A DNA stretch of 64,000 bases from Chloroflexota bacterium (GTDB taxonomy: Bacteria > Chloroflexota > Dehalococcoidia > SM23-28-2 > RBG-16-64-32): the NCBI GenBank assembly GCA_022574655.1, contig JACZRQ010000002.1, positions 5,696 to 69,695 on the forward strand, given 5' to 3'. Below the pieces are notes generated by a model. It ran no database searches, was not told where the DNA came from, and worked only from the letters and a program-made list of their open reading frames with translations. Numbering within the stretch: position 1 is the stretch's first letter; the number at the start of each line of letters is the position of its first letter. The translations under genes were made by a program, and so were the position numbers. Below are positions 5,740 through 55,826 of the stretch, one piece after another.

Positions 5740-6792
5740 ATGAGCGGCATGACTGCGGTGTTCCTGACCGACAAAGCAAAGATCGAGCTACGTGAGGCGC
5801 CGAAGCCAGTTCCCGGGCAAGGCGAAGTGCTGGTGCGCGTACGCGCTTGCGGCATCTGCGGCTCAGATCTGCATTTCTATCACGGCCGTCTGCCATCGAG
5901 GGCGGACATTTCGCCGGGGCACGAGTTTGCCGGCGATATAGCGGAACTCGGCGAAGGCGTTGACGGATTCCAAGAGGGCGACCGCGTGGCCGTTGAGCCG
6001 TACAAGTTCTGCCGGGAGTGCTCGTACTGCCGCGCTGGCCACTACCTGGAATGTTCCGAACGAGTGGCTATCGGCGCCCTTGTGAGCCTAAGCGGGAGCG
6101 GAGTAGATATCTGCTCGGGAGCGTTGACGGAGTACATAGTAGTGCCGTCTTACACTCTGTACCGGTTGCCGGATGAACTGGACTTCGTGCTGGGGGCGCT
6201 GATGGAGCCGCTGGCGGCAGCGGTCCACGGTGTGCACCTGGCTGAGGTCTCTGAAGGAGAGACGGTCTGCGTCCTCGGCAGCGGTACCATCGGTCTGATG
6301 TCGATCCTTGCTGCGCGAGCGGCGGGCGCCACCAATGTCATCGCAAGCTACCGTCATGCCCATCAGGCGGCAGCCGCCTTAGCGGTAGGCGCTTCGCGGG
6401 TCGTGAAGTCGGAGGAGATCGATGATCTTGGCCCAGAACAGATCGACGTAGTTATCGAGACCGTGGGCGGCGCGGCGCAGACTCCAACGCAGGCGCTCGG
6501 TTTGATCGGACCTCGCGGCCGCGTGCTGCTGTTGGGGCTTTTCACTCAGCCCGTCCAGCTAAACGTGCAGCGGGTAATGACGGAACAGGCCCGGATCATC
6601 GGTGGAAATGCGTACTGCCGCCGCCCGGGACAGCCCACAGACTACGATGCCGCACTGACAATCGTCCGCGCGGAGGCCGACCGCGCAGGCGCCATTATCA
6701 CGCACCGCTTCCCGTTAGATCAGACCGCAGAAGCGTTCGCGACAGCTGCGGATAAGTCGACCGGCTCGATCAAGGTTCAGGTCTGCCCCTAA
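5740..6792 (+). CDS. Zinc-binding alcohol dehydrogenase (MDR, sorbitol/threonine dehydrogenase-like)
   Basis: CGICGSDLH, GHE, structural Zn CxxCxxCx7C and GSGTIG. Start uncertain (5728/5740/5749). Confidence 0.9.
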   Translation: MSGMTAVFLTDKAKIELREAPKPVPGQGEVLVRVRACGICGSDLHFYHGRLPSRADISPGHEFAGDIAELGEGVDGFQEGDRVAVEPYKFCRECSYCRAGHYLECSERVAIGALVSLSGSGVDICSGALTEYIVVPSYTLYRLPDELDFVLGALMEPLAAAVHGVHLAEVSEGETVCVLGSGTIGLMSILAARAAGATNVIASYRHAHQAAAALAVGASRVVKSEEIDDLGPEQIDVVIETVGGAAQTPTQALGLIGPRGRVLLLGLFTQPVQLNVQRVMTEQARIIGGNAYCRRPGQPTDYDAALTIVRAEADRAGAIITHRFPLDQTAEAFATAADKSTGSIKVQVCP

Positions 6793-6817: not shown

Positions 6818-7591
6818 ATGCTACCGGGAATCAAGCAGTTCGACCTAACCGGCAGGATCGCCATCGTAACTGGCGGATCGAAAGGGCTCGGCGAGGCGAT
6901 GGCGGCGGCGCTCGCTTCGGCGGGAGCGGATCTAGTCATCACTAGCAGACATGGCGACGAGGCGAAGGCCGCGGCGGGACAGATCACGGCAGACCACGGG
7001 CGGCGCGCGATCGCCGTCGAAGCCGACGTAACAAAGCCCGCGGATACCGATCGCGTCGTCGACGCCGCTCTGTCCGAGTTCTGCAAGATCGACATCCTGA
7101 TTAACAACGCCGGCATCAACATCCGCGGATCGATCGACGAGCTGACGTACGAGCAGTTCAAGGAGGTCCAAGACATCAACGTCAACGGCATGTGGCTGTG
7201 CTCGCGAGCCGTGATCCCGCACATGAGGAAGGCGAAGTACGGCCGGATCATCAACATGTCCAGCTCGCTGGGACTGGTCGGGCTGGCCAATCGCACACCA
7301 TACGCGACCAGCAAGGGCGCCGTCGTCCAGATGACTCGGGCGCTCGCGCTCGAGCTCGCGTCATCGGGCGTGACCGTCAACGCGATCTGCCCCGGTCCGT
7401 TCCTTACGGCTATGAACGTGCCGATCGTCGACACAGAGGAAGGCAGGAAGTTCATCGTTGGTGCCACAGCCCTCGAGCGCTGGGGGCGTCTCGAGGAGAT
7501 CCAGGGCGCCGCGATCTTCCTGGCAAGTGACGCGGCGAGCTATATGGTGGGGAGCATAATCGCCGTCGACGGCGGCTGGACCGCTCGATAA
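6818..7591 (+). CDS. SDR oxidoreductase (gluconate 5-dehydrogenase-like)
   Basis: TGGSKGLG, NNAG and YATSK motifs. Confidence 0.92.
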   Translation: MLPGIKQFDLTGRIAIVTGGSKGLGEAMAAALASAGADLVITSRHGDEAKAAAGQITADHGRRAIAVEADVTKPADTDRVVDAALSEFCKIDILINNAGINIRGSIDELTYEQFKEVQDINVNGMWLCSRAVIPHMRKAKYGRIINMSSSLGLVGLANRTPYATSKGAVVQMTRALALELASSGVTVNAICPGPFLTAMNVPIVDTEEGRKFIVGATALERWGRLEEIQGAAIFLASDAASYMVGSIIAVDGGWTAR

Positions 7592-7672
7592 GCGTTTCGT
7601 TCCAAGGCGGGACGCGCGACCGGTGATATACAGCCACGGGGGGCGGTAGTCAGGTTTCGGAAGGAGATTGGA

Positions 7673-8495: not shown

Positions 8496-9302
8496 TCAGG
8501 TCAGGTTGCCGAATTCCTTGAGTAGTTGGGTATGAATGGGCGGGGCAGCTGCAAGTACCGACGAGTGCTGCATGTCCGTCACGGGTTGTCCTTCGAAAGT
8601 TGAGACGGTGGCGCCCGCTTCTTCCGCCAGCAGCCAGCCGGCGGCGAAGTCCCAGATCGCGGTGCCAAGGTGATAGTAGGCATCGAGCCGCCCCGCCGCT
8701 ACGTATGCGAGGCCAAGCGCGCAGGACCCCAACGAGAGAGACCTCTGAATTCTGGGAGCCAGGGTACGAGCCGTTAAGAACGTAAGTAGCACGTCATCTT
8801 CGATGTAGCCGAGGTCGTAGGCGATCAGCGCAGACTCGAGCGATGAACTGTTGCCGACTTGTATCGGCTGCCCGTCGACCGTGACACCGCTTCCGCGACG
8901 GCCGCTGAAGCACTCACGTCGGACCGGATCATAGACAACACCAAGTAGTGGCTGGTCATCCAGGAAGAGTGCGATCGAAACTGCGAAGAACGGTATACGG
9001 CGGTGAAAATTCATGGTGCCGTCCAGCGGGTCGACGATCCACTGGTAGGAGGAGGTCCCACTTCCGATCTGCGATCCGAATTCCTCGCCGACGATTCCGT
9101 GCGTAGGAAATTCCTTCTCGAGGGACTTGCGGATATGCTCCTCAGCCGCTAGATCCGCCGCGGTGACTACGTTTCCCCTCCCCTTGCTCGTCGTCACCTC
9201 GGTTGAGGTCTCTAGGATCAGTTCACCCGCCTGCTCGGCAAGCGCGACCGCCAGGTGGAGAGCATCAGTCCCGCTTCGACCGACCGGAAGTTCGCGCACC
9301 AT
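8496..9302 (-). CDS. Inositol monophosphatase family protein
   Basis: GEE, WIVDPLDGT and WDFAAG metal-binding motifs. Confidence 0.92.
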   Translation of the reverse strand: MVRELPVGRSGTDALHLAVALAEQAGELILETSTEVTTSKGRGNVVTAADLAAEEHIRKSLEKEFPTHGIVGEEFGSQIGSGTSSYQWIVDPLDGTMNFHRRIPFFAVSIALFLDDQPLLGVVYDPVRRECFSGRRGSGVTVDGQPIQVGNSSSLESALIAYDLGYIEDDVLLTFLTARTLAPRIQRSLSLGSCALGLAYVAAGRLDAYYHLGTAIWDFAAGWLLAEEAGATVSTFEGQPVTDMQHSSVLAAAPPIHTQLLKEFGNLT

Positions 9303-52850: not shown

Positions 52851-54212
52851 CTAAACTTCAGTGTCGACGAAGTAGGAGGAGCTGGCCAGGTCGATCCACT
52901 CCGGCGTCAGGGCGGGCTTCTCCCCGTAGAACCTCGTGATGTCGCTCAGCAGATCGATGAGATCGCGCGGGTGGCATCCCCGGTAGCTCCGGCCGGTCTT
53001 GTGGTAGTAGACGTCCATCAGGTAGCGGGCGCCTTCGTCGGAGTACGGCACGTCACGCTCCTTGCAGACGCGCTGGAGGATCTCCAGGAACTCTTCCTCC
53101 GACGGGTCTGGCACCTGCACCTTGTGGCGGATGCGACGGAAGAACGCCTCGTCTCCTAGTTTGCCGGGCGGGATGTTCGTGGAGAAGATGAGGAGCGTCT
53201 CAAACGGCACCTCCACGGTATCGCCGGAATGGAGGAAGAGGTGATCGACTCCTTGCTCCATGGGGACGATCCAGCGGTTCAGCAGCTCCTGCGGCTGCAC
53301 CGCCTGGCGGCCGAAGTCATCGATGACGAGCACGCCGGTGTTCGCCTTCCACTGTAGGGGGGCAATGTAGAACTTAGATACCGGAGAGTAGCGCAACTCC
53401 AGGTCCTCCAGCGTTAGCTCCCCTCCGGCCGTCACGATGGGGCGCTTGGTCTGCACCCAGCGTCGGTCGCGGCGGCGCTCTAACCCGTTCGAGCGTTGTG
53501 CGGAGCCTGCCAGCCGGTGGTCTTCATCCGTCTCCTCAGCAACCGGGTGGTGCAGGCGCGGGTCAAAGACCTTGATGATCTGTCCGTGTGTTTCAATGGC
53601 GTAGGGTATCAGCACCTGGCCGGGAAGCATCGTGCCGATGGCTAGCGTGATCGAGGTTTTGCCGTTGCCGGGCTCTCCGTAGATGAAGACGGACCGGGCG
53701 GAGTTCACAGCCGGCCCTAGCGGCGCCAGCACTTTCCGGCTCAGCACTAGGTGCGATAGCCGGTCGCGGAAGGTGTCGCGGTCAATATGGACATCCCTGA
53801 TGGACTGGCGCTTGAGGATGTCTATATATAATGAAAAGGGCACCGGCGCCGGGCCGACATATTGGTTTCTTCCCAGCGCCTCCTCAGCTTTCTCAACGCC
53901 GCGCCCCGTGAGGGCATATTGGTAGGCCTGCTCACCGACTCCCGCACTACCGACGACCTCCACGGCTTGCTCCTGGCGCAGGAAGGTGATCACCTCTTCC
54001 ATGACAGGGAAAGATAGGGCAAGCTGCTCTGCTAGCTGCCTGCCGGAGGGCCGGCCGGAGAAGTGGATCGCCTTCAGTACCAGGTCAACGAGTAGCGCCA
54101 GGTCAAGCCCGGTGTCATCGATACTGGTGGGTTGTGCCACAAACGGAGTGGGAGGGGCGGAAGAGACGTCTTTCGCTCCTCTGGTGATGGAGGCAGTAGT
54201 TTCAGCGGTCAT
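52851..54212 (-). CDS. AAA+ ATPase of unknown function with N-terminal winged-helix-like region
   Basis: Walker A GEPGNGKT, Walker B LVIDDFG, FSTN sensor and FFRRI arginine finger. Confidence 0.85.
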   Translation of the reverse strand: MTAETTASITRGAKDVSSAPPTPFVAQPTSIDDTGLDLALLVDLVLKAIHFSGRPSGRQLAEQLALSFPVMEEVITFLRQEQAVEVVGSAGVGEQAYQYALTGRGVEKAEEALGRNQYVGPAPVPFSLYIDILKRQSIRDVHIDRDTFRDRLSHLVLSRKVLAPLGPAVNSARSVFIYGEPGNGKTSITLAIGTMLPGQVLIPYAIETHGQIIKVFDPRLHHPVAEETDEDHRLAGSAQRSNGLERRRDRRWVQTKRPIVTAGGELTLEDLELRYSPVSKFYIAPLQWKANTGVLVIDDFGRQAVQPQELLNRWIVPMEQGVDHLFLHSGDTVEVPFETLLIFSTNIPPGKLGDEAFFRRIRHKVQVPDPSEEEFLEILQRVCKERDVPYSDEGARYLMDVYYHKTGRSYRGCHPRDLIDLLSDITRFYGEKPALTPEWIDLASSSYFVDTEV

Positions 54213-54266
54213 GTGTGAACCTCATCTCTAGACACGTGTTTCGTTCTCTGTTTCATCCTACGTAGA

Positions 54267-54293
54267 TCATCGCACGGAAACGGCGAAGCTGAA
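54267..54293 (-). promoter_or_regulatory. Sigma28/WhiG-like promoter motif upstream of the AAA ATPase
   Basis: TTCA-N15-TGCGATGA on the minus strand. Confidence 0.5.
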
Positions 54294-54303
54294 CCGTGCG
54301 CTC

Positions 54304-54723
54304 TCAGGCAGAGAGCAGCAGCTCTCGGGTTAGGTCGCCCCAACTGAAGAGCACCGCTGACAGCCGGCTACTCTCAGGGACCTGCGCACCGGTCCATTGG
54401 AGCAGTACTTCGTGAATCTGGGTCTCCGCCGCTCCCTCGCTATAGAAGTCCTGAGGGCGGAGAATGCCACAGTTGGAGCTGGCCTGCTGGACATTATCTT
54501 CATCCAGGACGGCAAGCGTCAGTGTGACGTAGTCCAGGCCGTACGGCCGGTGGGTCTGGCCCAACACCTCTCGACACCAGACAATGAGCGTGTTCGCCAT
54601 GTGGGTGCTGTCGCTCTCCAGTCGCCATGTGGTGTGATACAGGCCGACGCCGGCCTCTAAGGAACGGCGGACATGGTCGCGTAGAGACTGGCGCTGAAAC
54701 ACTCGACTGAGAGGGTTGGACAC
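54304..54723 (-). CDS. Hypothetical protein (139 aa)
   Basis: GGAGG RBS 5 nt before GTG 54723, with a sigma28-like motif upstream. Confidence 0.6.
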   Translation of the reverse strand: MSNPLSRVFQRQSLRDHVRRSLEAGVGLYHTTWRLESDSTHMANTLIVWCREVLGQTHRPYGLDYVTLTLAVLDEDNVQQASSNCGILRPQDFYSEGAAETQIHEVLLQWTGAQVPESSRLSAVLFSWGDLTRELLLSA

Positions 54724-54766
54724 AGAGGCCTCCGCGACGGCCCCATTGCAGCGGCCGCAAATGGAG

Positions 54767-54793
54767 TATCGACAGGCCAACGACAAAGGTTGA
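54767..54793 (-). promoter_or_regulatory. Sigma28/WhiG-like promoter motif
   Basis: TCAA-N15-GTCGATAC on the minus strand. Confidence 0.55.
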
Positions 54794-54802
54794 ACAGCGG
54801 GC

Positions 54803-55252
54803 TTATCGAGCATCTTCAGGGCGGAGGACCAGTGCTGCATAGATGGAGAAGGCGCCCAGGAACGCCAGGGCTAAGCCGGAAAGCTTGGGCCAAGGCCCAA
54901 CGCCACCGCTGGCGACGCCGGTCGCCGGCAGTGTGGCCGGCTCTCTGGGAGCTATCGCTACCGCCGGCGCAAGCTCTGAGACGTAGGTGGGGGTAGGCTG
55001 CGGCGCGGCCATGCTGGAAGAGGTCTCGCTCATGGGGCCAGCGGCGGTGGAAGAGGTCTCGCTCACGGGGCCGGCCGTGCTGGAAGAGGTCTCGCTTACG
55101 GGGCCGGAGGCGGTGGAGGAGGTCTCGCTCACGGGGCCGGAGGCGGCGCCGGAGGAGATGACCCCACTCCAGAGGAGGAGCAGGGCGAGCACGCCGCCGG
55201 CCACAATAGCGCGGCGTGCCCAGTGGCTGCATCTTCCAGCTATGGTACCCAT
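54803..55252 (-). CDS. Small secreted Ser/Thr-rich repeat protein with LPxTG-like sorting signal
   Basis: N-terminal signal peptide, four 11-aa repeats, LPATG, hydrophobic helix, and R-containing tail. Confidence 0.65.
   Translation of the reverse strand: MGTIAGRCSHWARRAIVAGGVLALLLLWSGVISSGAASGPVSETSSTASGPVSETSSSTAGPVSETSSTAAGPMSETSSSMAAPQPTPTYVSELAPAVAIAPREPATLPATGVASGGVGPWPKLSGLALAFLGAFSIYAALVLRPEDAR
55013..55144. repeat. 4 x 33-bp coding tandem repeat
   Basis: Unit G[CG]TGGA[AG]GAGGTCTCGCT[CT]A[CT]GGGGCC[AG]G..G., head to tail with no spacers. Encodes (S/A)GP(V/M)SETSS(T/S)(A/T/M). Confidence 0.95.
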
Positions 55253-55256
55253 GGCT

Positions 55257-55296
55257 AAACAAGAAAGCCGCCGGCTTCAGCGCGAAGGCGACGGCT
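55257..55296 (-). terminator. Intrinsic terminator-like hairpin between riboswitch and ATG
   Basis: AGCCGTCG-C-CTTC-gcgct-GAAG-C-CGGCGGCT followed by TTCTTGTTT, 4 nt before the start codon. Confidence 0.65.
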
Positions 55297-55318
55297 GAAC
55301 ATCCTCCGATTTTTCCTC

Positions 55319-55440
55319 TTCGGCAGCTCGGCCGTCGTTCCCGCTGTGGGAGTAGACCCGGAGCTTTGCGCCCGGACAAATTGCCGGGGGCCTTGCGACC
55401 AGGCGTGGTTTCCCACGCCGTGCCCTTTCGGAGGTCTATT
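55319..55440 (-). ncRNA. c-di-GMP-I (GEMM-I)-like riboswitch, atypical 5' half
   Basis: GCGCAAAGCTCCGGGTCTA...GACGGCCGAGCTGCCGAA matches the GEMM-I 3' signature. Upstream GNRA hairpins include GGCGTGG-GAAA-CCACGCC. Confidence 0.55.
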
Positions 55441-55654
55441 CTGTTGTCTTGCGGATTGGGCCAGGGGACGCCAGCCAGGCCCCGCCTCCTGAACGCGCGC
55501 CCCCTAGGCCCGTAGCCCGATCTCGCAGCCATTCATAAAGAGTGGCTGTAGATCGCTGGAGTAAGTTGGCACCCATAGCCTCAGTGCCCGTTTCGCGCGC
55601 CAGGCTCGCATCCTGCTCCCCAGCGTCGTTCACGAGATCTGGACATCCTTGCCC

Positions 55655-55681
55655 TGAACGGTGCGGTTCTTTAGCCGATAC
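55655..55681 (+). promoter_or_regulatory. Sigma28/WhiG-like promoter motif upstream of the vWA-FHA gene
   Basis: TGAA-N15-GCCGATAC. Confidence 0.62.
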
Positions 55682-55826
55682 TACTGTTGGACGCTTGATT
55701 CGACAGCCACCAACGATCGGTTCGCACCGATGCTGTCGGATCGCGCCGCATTGTGTCATAGCCATCATTGATATGTCAAGTGCAAGTTCCATGTCTATTC
55801 AGATCAGAACGGGAGAATCGCACGGT

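Follow-up and report, generated by a model that had tools for sequence, protein, structure and literature searches.

A structural variant of the c-di-GMP-I riboswitch with a three-hairpin arm in the leader of a small LPATG protein operon of Dehalococcoidia

What kind of RNA lies in front of a small LPATG protein gene of an uncultured Chloroflexota bacterium, where the 3′ half of the leader resembles a GEMM-I (c-di-GMP-I) riboswitch while the 5′ half carries an unusual series of hairpins? The locus is found on the minus strand of a 64,000-nt stretch, hereafter the window, of contig JACZRQ010000002.1 (GenBank assembly GCA_022574655.1), which belongs to a metagenome-assembled genome (MAG) of the Dehalococcoidia (2.65 Mb, 77% complete). 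Re-reading of the minus strand confirmed the letters quoted for positions 55257-55440 in a first-pass annotation of this DNA. We find that the RNA is a real riboswitch of a known class, in a structural form that is new. Judged from its sequence, it is highly probable that it contains a genuine c-di-GMP-I aptamer, and we hold with the same high confidence that the arm of this aptamer consists of three consecutive hairpins where canonical members have one. We further think it reasonably probable that the riboswitch is functional in the 5′ leader of the small LPATG surface-protein operon and that cyclic di-GMP (c-di-GMP) would turn expression on, by switching between two helices, P0 and P1. These names, as well as H1 to H3 and T, denote helices and hairpins of the minus-strand leader, whose coordinates are collected in Table 1.

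The first-pass annotation had held that the 3′ half of the element fits GEMM-I, and the comparison with Rfam by Infernal which it proposed bears this out: the c-di-GMP-I model (RF01051) scores 39.1 bits, above its gathering score of 35, with an E-value of 4e-4 over the whole window and 3.8e-6 locally, and it is the sole Rfam family above its cut-off within these 64 kb. In this cmscan alignment, the fit is very good for P3 and the 3′ junction, but the 5′ consensus GGCAAA was set on a chance GGCAA inside H3, shrinking P2 to 9 nt. All nine homologous loci first tested (loci are given as L and a number) likewise show a GEMM-I match, at 38.4-46.0 bits. In five of them (L059-L063), CCUCCGAAAAGGCAcA was placed on model positions 1-16, followed by an insert and then by GGCGCAAAGC; this insert measures 45 nt, except in L060, which has 29 nt and an outer stem. 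In the remaining four (L064-L067), cmscan anchored on an H3-like stem, as it did in the window. The 5′ anchor found in homologues is the upstream CCUCCGAAAAGGCA, with the 45-nt insert behind it. Because these homologue alignments fix the 5′ register, we take the true aptamer in the window to extend from 55434 to 55315. A covariance model of our own, R1, scores this aptamer at 156.6 bits and gives 99-148 bits to 22 other variant matches in 22 loci, some of which have identical sequences. Canonical GEMM-I elements reach at most 62 bits and hence stand apart from the variant with its at least 99 bits.

The homologous leaders used for these comparisons were reached through protein homologues and then by a pattern scan through collections of metagenomes and genomes, which added L087, L104, L106, L113, L117/L149, L127, L129, and L137, while a class-wide scan with R1 added the more distant L156 and L157. 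A DNA search with the 211-nt leader against 60 related genomes returned P3-level matches to other GEMM-I elements only, and no orthologue within the same family. We read register and conservation from 18 distinct homologous aptamer sequences (alignment A2, made with MAFFT). Note that A2 misplaces H1, H3, and P1 in some sequences, so that these were realigned to R1; the resulting set of 19 sequences (alignment A4), in which L073 and L137 are still off by one base in P1, served for covariation. The P0 duplex and hairpin T were tabulated over 20 distinct leaders, the window included. The residue numbers given below are those of Vc2, recovered from the residues named in PMC11705072 (A33 in the GAAA loop, C44-G83, G20, G21, G42, and G45, and further U90, C92, G94, and U96) and from PMC6140456.

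Across homologues, 98.4% of the alignment cells of P3 are paired; in the window, the P3 5′ strand AGCnCGGGnC and its partner are both present, with standard pairs at all model pairs except two in the distal stem. The equivalents of G20, of A47, which intercalates in c-di-GMP-I riboswitches, and of C92 are found in the window within the invariant blocks GGC, CGCAAAGC, and GCCGA, respectively, and the residues of the long-range pair C44:G83 are conserved together with the AAA linker at 55367-55365. In published work, G20 reads the α-guanine of c-di-GMP, while C92 is the Watson-Crick partner of the β-guanine (PMC11705072, PMC6140456). G20 is a G in 17 of the 18 distinct sequences of A2; the only A is found in L117, which is identical to L149. 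As for P1, we discounted its apparent double changes within the variant as alignment shifts in L073 and L137, and its support therefore comes from canonical relatives of the family, whose P1 (CUCCCG/CG-AA-GGAG) keeps the same pattern with U-A and C-G pairs swapped. The junction J1/2 counts 4 nt in the window versus 5 in these relatives.

The 5′ half is where the variant departs from the class. According to the first-pass annotation, the single P2 hairpin had been replaced by four; the GGCGUGG, GGUC, and CCGG hairpins of that proposal are real and correspond to H1, H2, and H3, whereas its UCC-GAAA-GGG hairpin dissolves into the P1 5′ strand (CCUCCG), J1/2, and G20-G21. When the P2 insert is folded alone, three consecutive hairpins appear in 18 of 19 sequences, L157 included, and for RNA cut at the 3′ end of P1 (window, L064, and L068) the minimum-energy fold consists of P1, the three hairpins in a row, and P3. 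Alignment of the aptamers to R1 leaves 95.9% of cells paired, as compared with at most 49% when the partners are slid against each other. The covariation analysis of homologues that had been suggested for this element found 11 pairs that change on both sides, and none of 500 shuffles reached the observed values. Most of this covariation sits in H1, where five of the seven pairs have changed on both sides. H2 is replaced by GGCCCCGA/UCGGGGCC in L073, by GCCG/CGGC in L156 (read by eye), and by GCAGGC/GCCUGC in L157. H3 has a stem of 5-8 bp with an unconserved loop and shows one GC-to-CG exchange in four sequences; its counterpart in L157 is CUCCCCC/GGGGGAG. In other words, the distant homologues L156 and L157 keep all three hairpins despite different H2 and H3 sequences. 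Two points weigh on the other side: close homologues hardly differ in P1, P0, H2, and most of P3, which hence offer little covariation, and the receptor motif in P3 is degenerate, its strands reading CUAC...AAC where canonical members have CUAAG...UAUG, as does L157.

Which of the three hairpins is the original one? H1 directly follows G20-G21-C22-A(AA), is of canonical length (6-7 bp), and usually has a GNRA loop. Moreover, in 10 of 11 distinct sequences with a GAAA loop in H1, a receptor-like U(A/G) motif follows GGGUC in P3, as opposed to none of six sequences with other loops (GCAA, GUAA, or non-GNRA; Fisher P = 0.0006, uncorrected for relatedness). The same kind of rule was described for GEMM RNAs by Weinberg et al., in which a GAAA loop pairs with a receptor while a GYRA loop occurs without one (PMC1950547). 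Given its length, its GNRA loop, and the way in which loop type tracks the P3 motif, we regard H1 as the standard P1b/P2 hairpin. H1 is not the whole arm, joined to C44 by G42-A43 only, as it would be in a canonical member; instead, 31 nt intervene, made up of a U, H2, and H3. We read this stretch as a 31-nt insertion that takes the position of G42-A43 and runs up to C44, leaving the residues of the binding site untouched.

The comparison with Vc2 of Vibrio cholerae, a typical c-di-GMP-I riboswitch, summarizes what has been kept and what has been added. Common to both are the three-helix junction, the GGCA...CGCAAAGC core, the AAA linker, the P3 sequence with its bulge, the equivalents of G20, C44:G83, A47, and C92, and a GNRA hairpin of canonical length (H1) whose loop type tracks the P3 receptor-like motif as described for GEMM (PMC1950547). 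Unlike Vc2-type members, the window carries two extra hairpins (∼31 nt) between the GNRA hairpin and C44, by which the junction gains two branches, and its receptor motif in P3 is degenerate. Elaboration of the arm seems to recur: L101 (Ga0105164_10004264) and L124 (OBEQ010478392.1) have a canonical core and an arm of about 70-85 nt with several hairpins by eye. Both are unrelated to the window element in sequence and layout, with a short GNRA hairpin (ACG-GCAA-CGU and CAUG-GAGA-CAUG) that is the 3′-most there, as seen by eye in the unfolded sequence, whereas the GNRA hairpin is the 5′-most in the window; they seem to be independent elaborations. A rather speculative thought, to which we give a small probability, is that the inserted hairpins may be more than neutral decoration, forming an extra tertiary module that retunes ligand kinetics or affinity or recruits a second factor, which would make these RNAs, in their structured leader of ∼490 nt, a distinct GEMM-I subclass. 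The second GNRA loop, that of H2, could for example dock on H1 or P3.

How might ligand binding be relayed to the gene? Just 3′ of P1, and invariant in the 18 sequences, lies UCGGAGG, which is complementary to CCUCCGA, made up of the P1 5′ strand and the first base of the junction. We consider it likely, on the basis of predicted folds, that the resulting duplex P0 is the switching helix. Its energy is −13.2 kcal/mol in the window and ranges from −13 to −18.6 kcal/mol across all 20 leaders, and in each of five leaders folded, the minimum-energy structure turned from P1 to P0 once UCGGAGG had been transcribed. Changes that preserve P0 were seen by eye in L127 (CGAC/GUCG for CGAA/UUCG), in L156 (U.G), and in L171 (GCUCC/GGAGC), the latter a relative with a canonical arm on the same leader. 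L158 shows the same design, in which a Shine-Dalgarno (SD) sequence is countered by an anti-SD strand, on a canonical aptamer. Without ligand, P0 would win and break the pocket; in particular, it would remove the G:C pair that stacks under C92, which we infer to be incompatible with binding. Bound c-di-GMP, in contrast, would lock P1 and leave UCGGAGG single-stranded.

The clearest indication of the regulatory sign comes from four deletion variants (L059/L060, L079/L080, L075-L077, and L137) that have lost the downstream hairpin together with the original start. In all four, GGAGG lies 6-10 nt before the called start codon and is the only SD sequence. Without ligand, this SD would be sequestered by P0, whereas with ligand P1 would hold CCUCC and the SD would be free, so that translation is on; with GGAGG as their only SD, these variants therefore read as ON switches. 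A comparison of L137 with L129 places the deletion between two GGAG(G)(A)UCUUC repeats.

In the window itself, a 13-bp hairpin (T, in which one stem position is a C-C mismatch) and a U tract stand between UCGGAGG and the ATG. The first-pass annotation had noted a strong hairpin with a U-rich tail just before the ATG, and T at 55296-55266 with the tract at 55265-55257 is exactly this. A GC-rich hairpin followed by a U tract has the makeup of an intrinsic terminator, and we infer from the sequence that T works as one; a simple terminator scanner reports overlapping sub-stems only. T was counted by eye in 13 of the 20 distinct leaders, with a stem of 12-13 bp that shows compensating changes at one position, filled by C.C, U-A, C-G, or U.G (likewise by eye), and it is also present in the more distant L156, L157, and L171. 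Behind T, the window, L068, L117, and L129 have a good U tract and L073 and L127 a poor one.

For the window, we assume the same sign as in the deletion variants, with c-di-GMP switching expression on, and we put the chance of this at about even or slightly better. The ON direction is favored here because it is parsimonious given the four hairpin-less derivatives and because it suits the biology of a surface protein whose gene neighbors a Tad pilus locus. Thus, the ON switch of the first-pass annotation gains from the deletion variants, with UCGGAGG as their only SD, while in the form found in the window the fold tests tied T to neither aptamer state. Several further observations weigh against an ON switch in this window. 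T forms in predicted folds under enforced P1 and under enforced P0 alike. A relay in which UCGGAGG acts as an antiterminator by pairing with the 5′ arm of T was set aside, as its −7 to −10.5 kcal/mol lie within 1-2 standard deviations of shuffled strands. So was a translational relay, since the accessibility of the start region did not differ consistently between enforced P1 and enforced P0 over 12 leaders; in the window, it was lower with P1 locked (0.40 versus 0.71). The ATG at 55252 has no SD sequence. We also observed that in the window (55255-55302, minus strand) GGAGG is directly followed by an AUG, from which a frame of 15 codons (MFSRRLRAEAGGFLV) extends across T to a UAG that lies 2 nt ahead of the main ATG. 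Coupling through this upstream open reading frame was dropped as an explanation since the frame is not conserved in homologues.

To the opposite sign we assign a lower though appreciable probability. In an OFF switch, c-di-GMP would stabilize the aptamer and T would terminate transcription, whereas without ligand an antiterminator would form or the terminator would weaken. T lies wholly 3′ of the aptamer, the usual layout of OFF switches. In the unconstrained fold of the window, T is replaced by a duplex of its own 5′ arm (GCCGUCGCCUUC) with the P3 3′ strand (GGAACGACGGC), which would translate into OFF with ligand. When P1 is locked in folds of the window, L061, and L073, the U/C tract behind T is paired with the then unoccupied purine strand, which could strengthen termination, and in canonical GEMM-I elements of the same family (L034-L036) the P1 3′ strand lies inside the SD, which reads as OFF. 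The pairing between P3 and T was nevertheless rejected as a general antiterminator: it is predicted in the window only, while L061, L064, L068, and L073 keep P0 and P3 with the T arm free, and it needs the stable P3 to be unzipped. In addition, the four deletion variants are ON by construction, and a repeated flip of the sign is less parsimonious.

The ligand is probably the ordinary one. Because the G20 residue is a G here, c-di-GMP is the expected ligand, and going by the sequence its specificity is probably unchanged. The first-pass annotation had raised the possibility of altered ligand specificity, which does not sit well with the equivalents of G20, C44, A47, G83, and C92 and the AAA linker, all of them kept in the window. 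A change to 3′,3′-cyclic GMP-AMP (cGAMP), c-di-AMP, or another dinucleotide through the expanded arm is, in our view, quite unlikely. One could invoke that the insert adjoins C44 and so comes near the pocket, and that one member of the class, L117 (= L149, from Chloroflexi bacterium RBG_16_68_14), has a natural A20, the signature of GEMM-Ib. Replacement of G20 by A yields cGAMP or bispecific riboswitches, and the wild-type G20 discriminates against cGAMP (PMC6140456). G20 is, however, retained in the window and in 16 of the 17 other distinct sequences, A47 and C92 are retained as well, and the genome encodes 11 GGDEF domains. GEMM-Ib riboswitches, which sense 3′,3′-cGAMP (e.g., Gs1761 of Geobacter), share the same fold and family model, but with a G at 55424 the window is no GEMM-Ib candidate. 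The natural A20 (..AGAGCA.. for ..AGGCA..) is found at L117:1275-1416 and L149:3274-3415, in a three-hairpin element before the same operon, and A20 also occurs in L037, L041, L045, and L056, including several canonical GEMM-I elements of family relatives.

We judge it more improbable still that the RNA is a decaying or nonfunctional GEMM-I relic that would have lost its P2 hairpin and, for this reason, would score low with Rfam and have an odd 5′ half. Its 39.1 bits are indeed the lowest among the three GEMM-I elements of the genome (the others score 90.5 and 70.6 bits), and P2 measures only 9 nt in the cmscan alignment of the window. Yet this low score is an alignment artifact of the 45-50 nt insert, the full architecture is kept, with covariation, in 18 distinct sequences from several Chloroflexota MAGs and metagenomes, and every ligand-contact residue is retained. 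Least probable of all is a partial tandem duplication, in which two GEMM-I 5′ halves (GGCAC...GGUCGCAAGGCC and GGCAAU...GGGCGCAAAGC) would have one 3′ half in common: around CGCAA, the two stretches of the window share 13 of 18 positions, and it was the inner one that cmscan picked, but this inner GGCAA is unique to the window, homologues showing CCCGGCG, CCCGGAC, or CCCCGAC, and GGUCGCAAGGCC is a plain GNRA hairpin, so that the tandem 5′ half was dropped.

Table 1. Features of the riboswitch leader and of its operon (window coordinates; all on the minus strand)
Feature	Position	Strand	Remarks
Candidate sigma-70-type promoter, TTGACA-18-(TG)CACAAT	55750..55779	−	10/12 matches versus 0.2 expected
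Leader hairpins A (55555-55518) and B (55511-55458)	55458..55555	−	RNAalifold on 14 leaders
Full leader as read	55440-55250	−	AAUAGA CCUCCG AAAG G GC AC [GGCGUGG GAAA CCACGCC] U [GGUC GCAA GGCC] [CCCGG CAAUUUGU CCGGG] C GC AAA GCUCCGGGUC UACUCCCACAGCGGGAAC GACGGCCGAGCU G C C G AA GAGG AAAAA UCGGAGG AUGUUC [ AGCCGUCGCCUUC GCGCU GAAGCCGGCGGCU ] UUCUUGUUU AGCC AUG
Probable complete c-di-GMP-I aptamer, 120 nt (P1, J1/2, three-hairpin arm, CGCAAA core, P3)	55315..55434	−	Homologue-guided limits
Rfam RF01051 match as reported	55319..55395	−	3′ part correct, 5′ end mis-registered
P1 5′ strand, CCUCCG; also 5′ strand of P0	55429..55434	−	Pairs with CG 55322-55321 and GAGG 55318-55315 (AA bulge 55320-55319)
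G20 equivalent	55424	−	First G of consensus GGCA; next G and C pair with G45/C46
H1, GGCGUGG-GAAA-CCACGCC, 7 bp	55402..55419	−	Counterpart of the canonical GNRA-capped P1b/P2 hairpin
H2, GGUC-GCAA-GGCC, first inserted hairpin	55389..55400	−	Nearly invariant GGCC/GGCC in close homologues
H3, CCCGG-CAAUUUGU-CCGGG, second inserted hairpin	55371..55388	−	Directly abuts C44
Core, CGCAAA	55365..55370	−	C44 55370, G45-C46 55369-55368, A47-A49 55367-55365; invariant in 18/18
A47 equivalent	55367	−	Within the invariant block CGCAAAGC
P3 helix (P2 in 2007 nomenclature)	55325..55365	−	Aligned to the Rfam consensus at high posterior probability
G83 equivalent, bulged	55332	−	In P3; conserved
C92 equivalent	55323	−	First C of invariant GCCGA; numbering deduced from U90/C92/G94/U96 (PMC11705072)
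UCGGAGG, P0 3′ strand (anti-P1), SD-like	55303..55309	−	Invariant in 18 sequences; 5 nt 3′ of P1
Hairpin T, AGCCGUCGCCUUC-GCGCU-GAAGCCGGCGGCU, terminator-like	55266..55296	−	13 stem positions: 12 pairs and one C-C mismatch
U-rich tract after T, UUCUUGUUU	55257..55265	−	Ends 4 nt before the ATG at 55252
Controlled gene, 149-aa secreted Ser/Thr-rich protein with LPATG	54803..55252	−	Sorting signal at motif level
Downstream genes, 147-aa-type protein and 453-aa AAA-type ATPase	52851..54840	−	Synteny; ATPase with weak AAA_16 match

The gene behind the leader is indeed one for an LPxTG-type protein, as the first-pass annotation had stated: the 149-aa product of 54803-55252(-) has an N-terminal hydrophobic signal-like segment, PVSETSS repeats, the LPATG motif, a hydrophobic segment, and a charged tail, its sorting signal being laid out as LPATG-(13 aa)-SGLALAFLGAFSIYAALVL-RPEDAR. 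The combination of [LF]Px[TSA]G, hydrophobic segment, and charged tail recurs in all 35 homologues from public assemblies. At the level of motifs, the protein thus has the features of a sortase substrate, and four PF04203 sortase genes are present in the genome. No Pfam or NCBIfam family matched the protein at E ≤ 0.01, the Gram_pos_anchor and LPXTG anchor models included. Members of this protein family (P0002-P0036) also share (S/G)PVSETSS repeats, in numbers that differ between members, and a YVSELAPAV motif that immediately precedes the sorting signal.

Homologous contigs show a common arrangement, in which a leader of 530-660 nt separates a divergent VWA protein gene from those for the small protein, a protein of 147 aa, and an ATPase of 456 aa, in this order. 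The order of small protein, 147 aa, and ∼456 aa is kept in L059, L062, L068, L069, and L073, and in the window the open reading frame 54304-54840 is the counterpart of the 147-aa gene of the relatives. Beyond the divergent VWA gene follow a gene for an ECF-type (extracytoplasmic function) sigma factor and Tad genes (CpaB, a receiver-CpaE-like ATPase, CpaF, and TadB), the Tad genes lying 4-9 kb away from the riboswitch. The genome as a whole has 11 GGDEF loci, the four sortase genes, and two further, canonical GEMM-I elements, located at G000:C97:17257-17343(-) (90.5 bits) and G000:C71:1358-1446(-) (70.6 bits); a GGDEF gene of the same orientation (C97:18331-18804) precedes the former by ∼1 kb.

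Upstream of the aptamer, a further 420 nt are strongly conserved in 18 leaders. TTGACA and TGnCAnAAT of the candidate promoter are conserved in all 18 homologous leaders, and a start from there, predicted near 55743, would give a leader of ∼490 nt. For hairpins A and B, 97.2% of cells are paired in 14 leaders, versus 31-50% with the partners slid, and 11 pairs have G.U variants that pair on the minus strand only. No Rfam family matched within window positions 55445-55780(-), a stretch of about 330 nt that is conserved throughout in the 18 leaders. Hairpin B is also present in L078, a locus without a riboswitch. At 55674-55684, a block that reads GTAGTATCGGC on the minus strand and GCCGATACTAC on the plus strand is conserved in 18/18 leaders; the plus-strand GCCGATACTAC is a candidate −10 element of sigma-28/WhiG type for the divergent VWA gene, in which case both transcription units would overlap. 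With its promoter, hairpins A and B, aptamer, anti-P1 strand, and T, the structured leader could integrate c-di-GMP with another signal.

Comparable arrangements are known from Firmicutes, where c-di-GMP riboswitches likewise precede genes for sortase-anchored surface proteins or pili. Bc2 of Bacillus thuringiensis, located before the collagen adhesin gene cap, and the c-di-GMP-II riboswitches of Clostridioides difficile before pilA1 and CD2831 are ON switches. The window differs from these in coming from Chloroflexota, in having an anti-P1 strand plus a separate hairpin, and in that the protein is tiny and Ser/Thr-rich instead of a large adhesin. The variant was found in three of 401 sampled Dehalococcoidia genomes and, at 77 bits with R1, in two more. 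In a literature search by titles and abstracts, we found no paper on a GEMM-I with a branched arm or on a c-di-GMP riboswitch from Chloroflexi, which is no proof that the variant is undescribed. As an aside, one metagenome contig, L090 (Ga0209515_10000418), has six GEMM-I matches, five of them within ∼2.6 kb (6439-6600, 7516-7619, 8691-8834, 8913-9037, and others).

Few riboswitch folds have been studied as thoroughly as GEMM-I, which also often serves as a scaffold for biosensors. A natural and conserved version with two extra hairpins one nucleotide from the pocket residue C44 points out where this fold tolerates or exploits elaboration, and with it the influence of peripheral helices on ligand kinetics can be tested on a natural RNA. 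As the annotation by Rfam mis-registers such members and scores them barely above threshold, similar variants are probably under-counted. Platforms with and without the terminator hairpin on near-identical aptamers (L059, L079, and L068 differ at 2-3 positions) amount to a natural experiment in platform change. For the Dehalococcoidia, the riboswitch described here links the c-di-GMP signaling of these uncultured bacteria to a putatively sortase-anchored surface protein encoded beside a Tad pilus locus.

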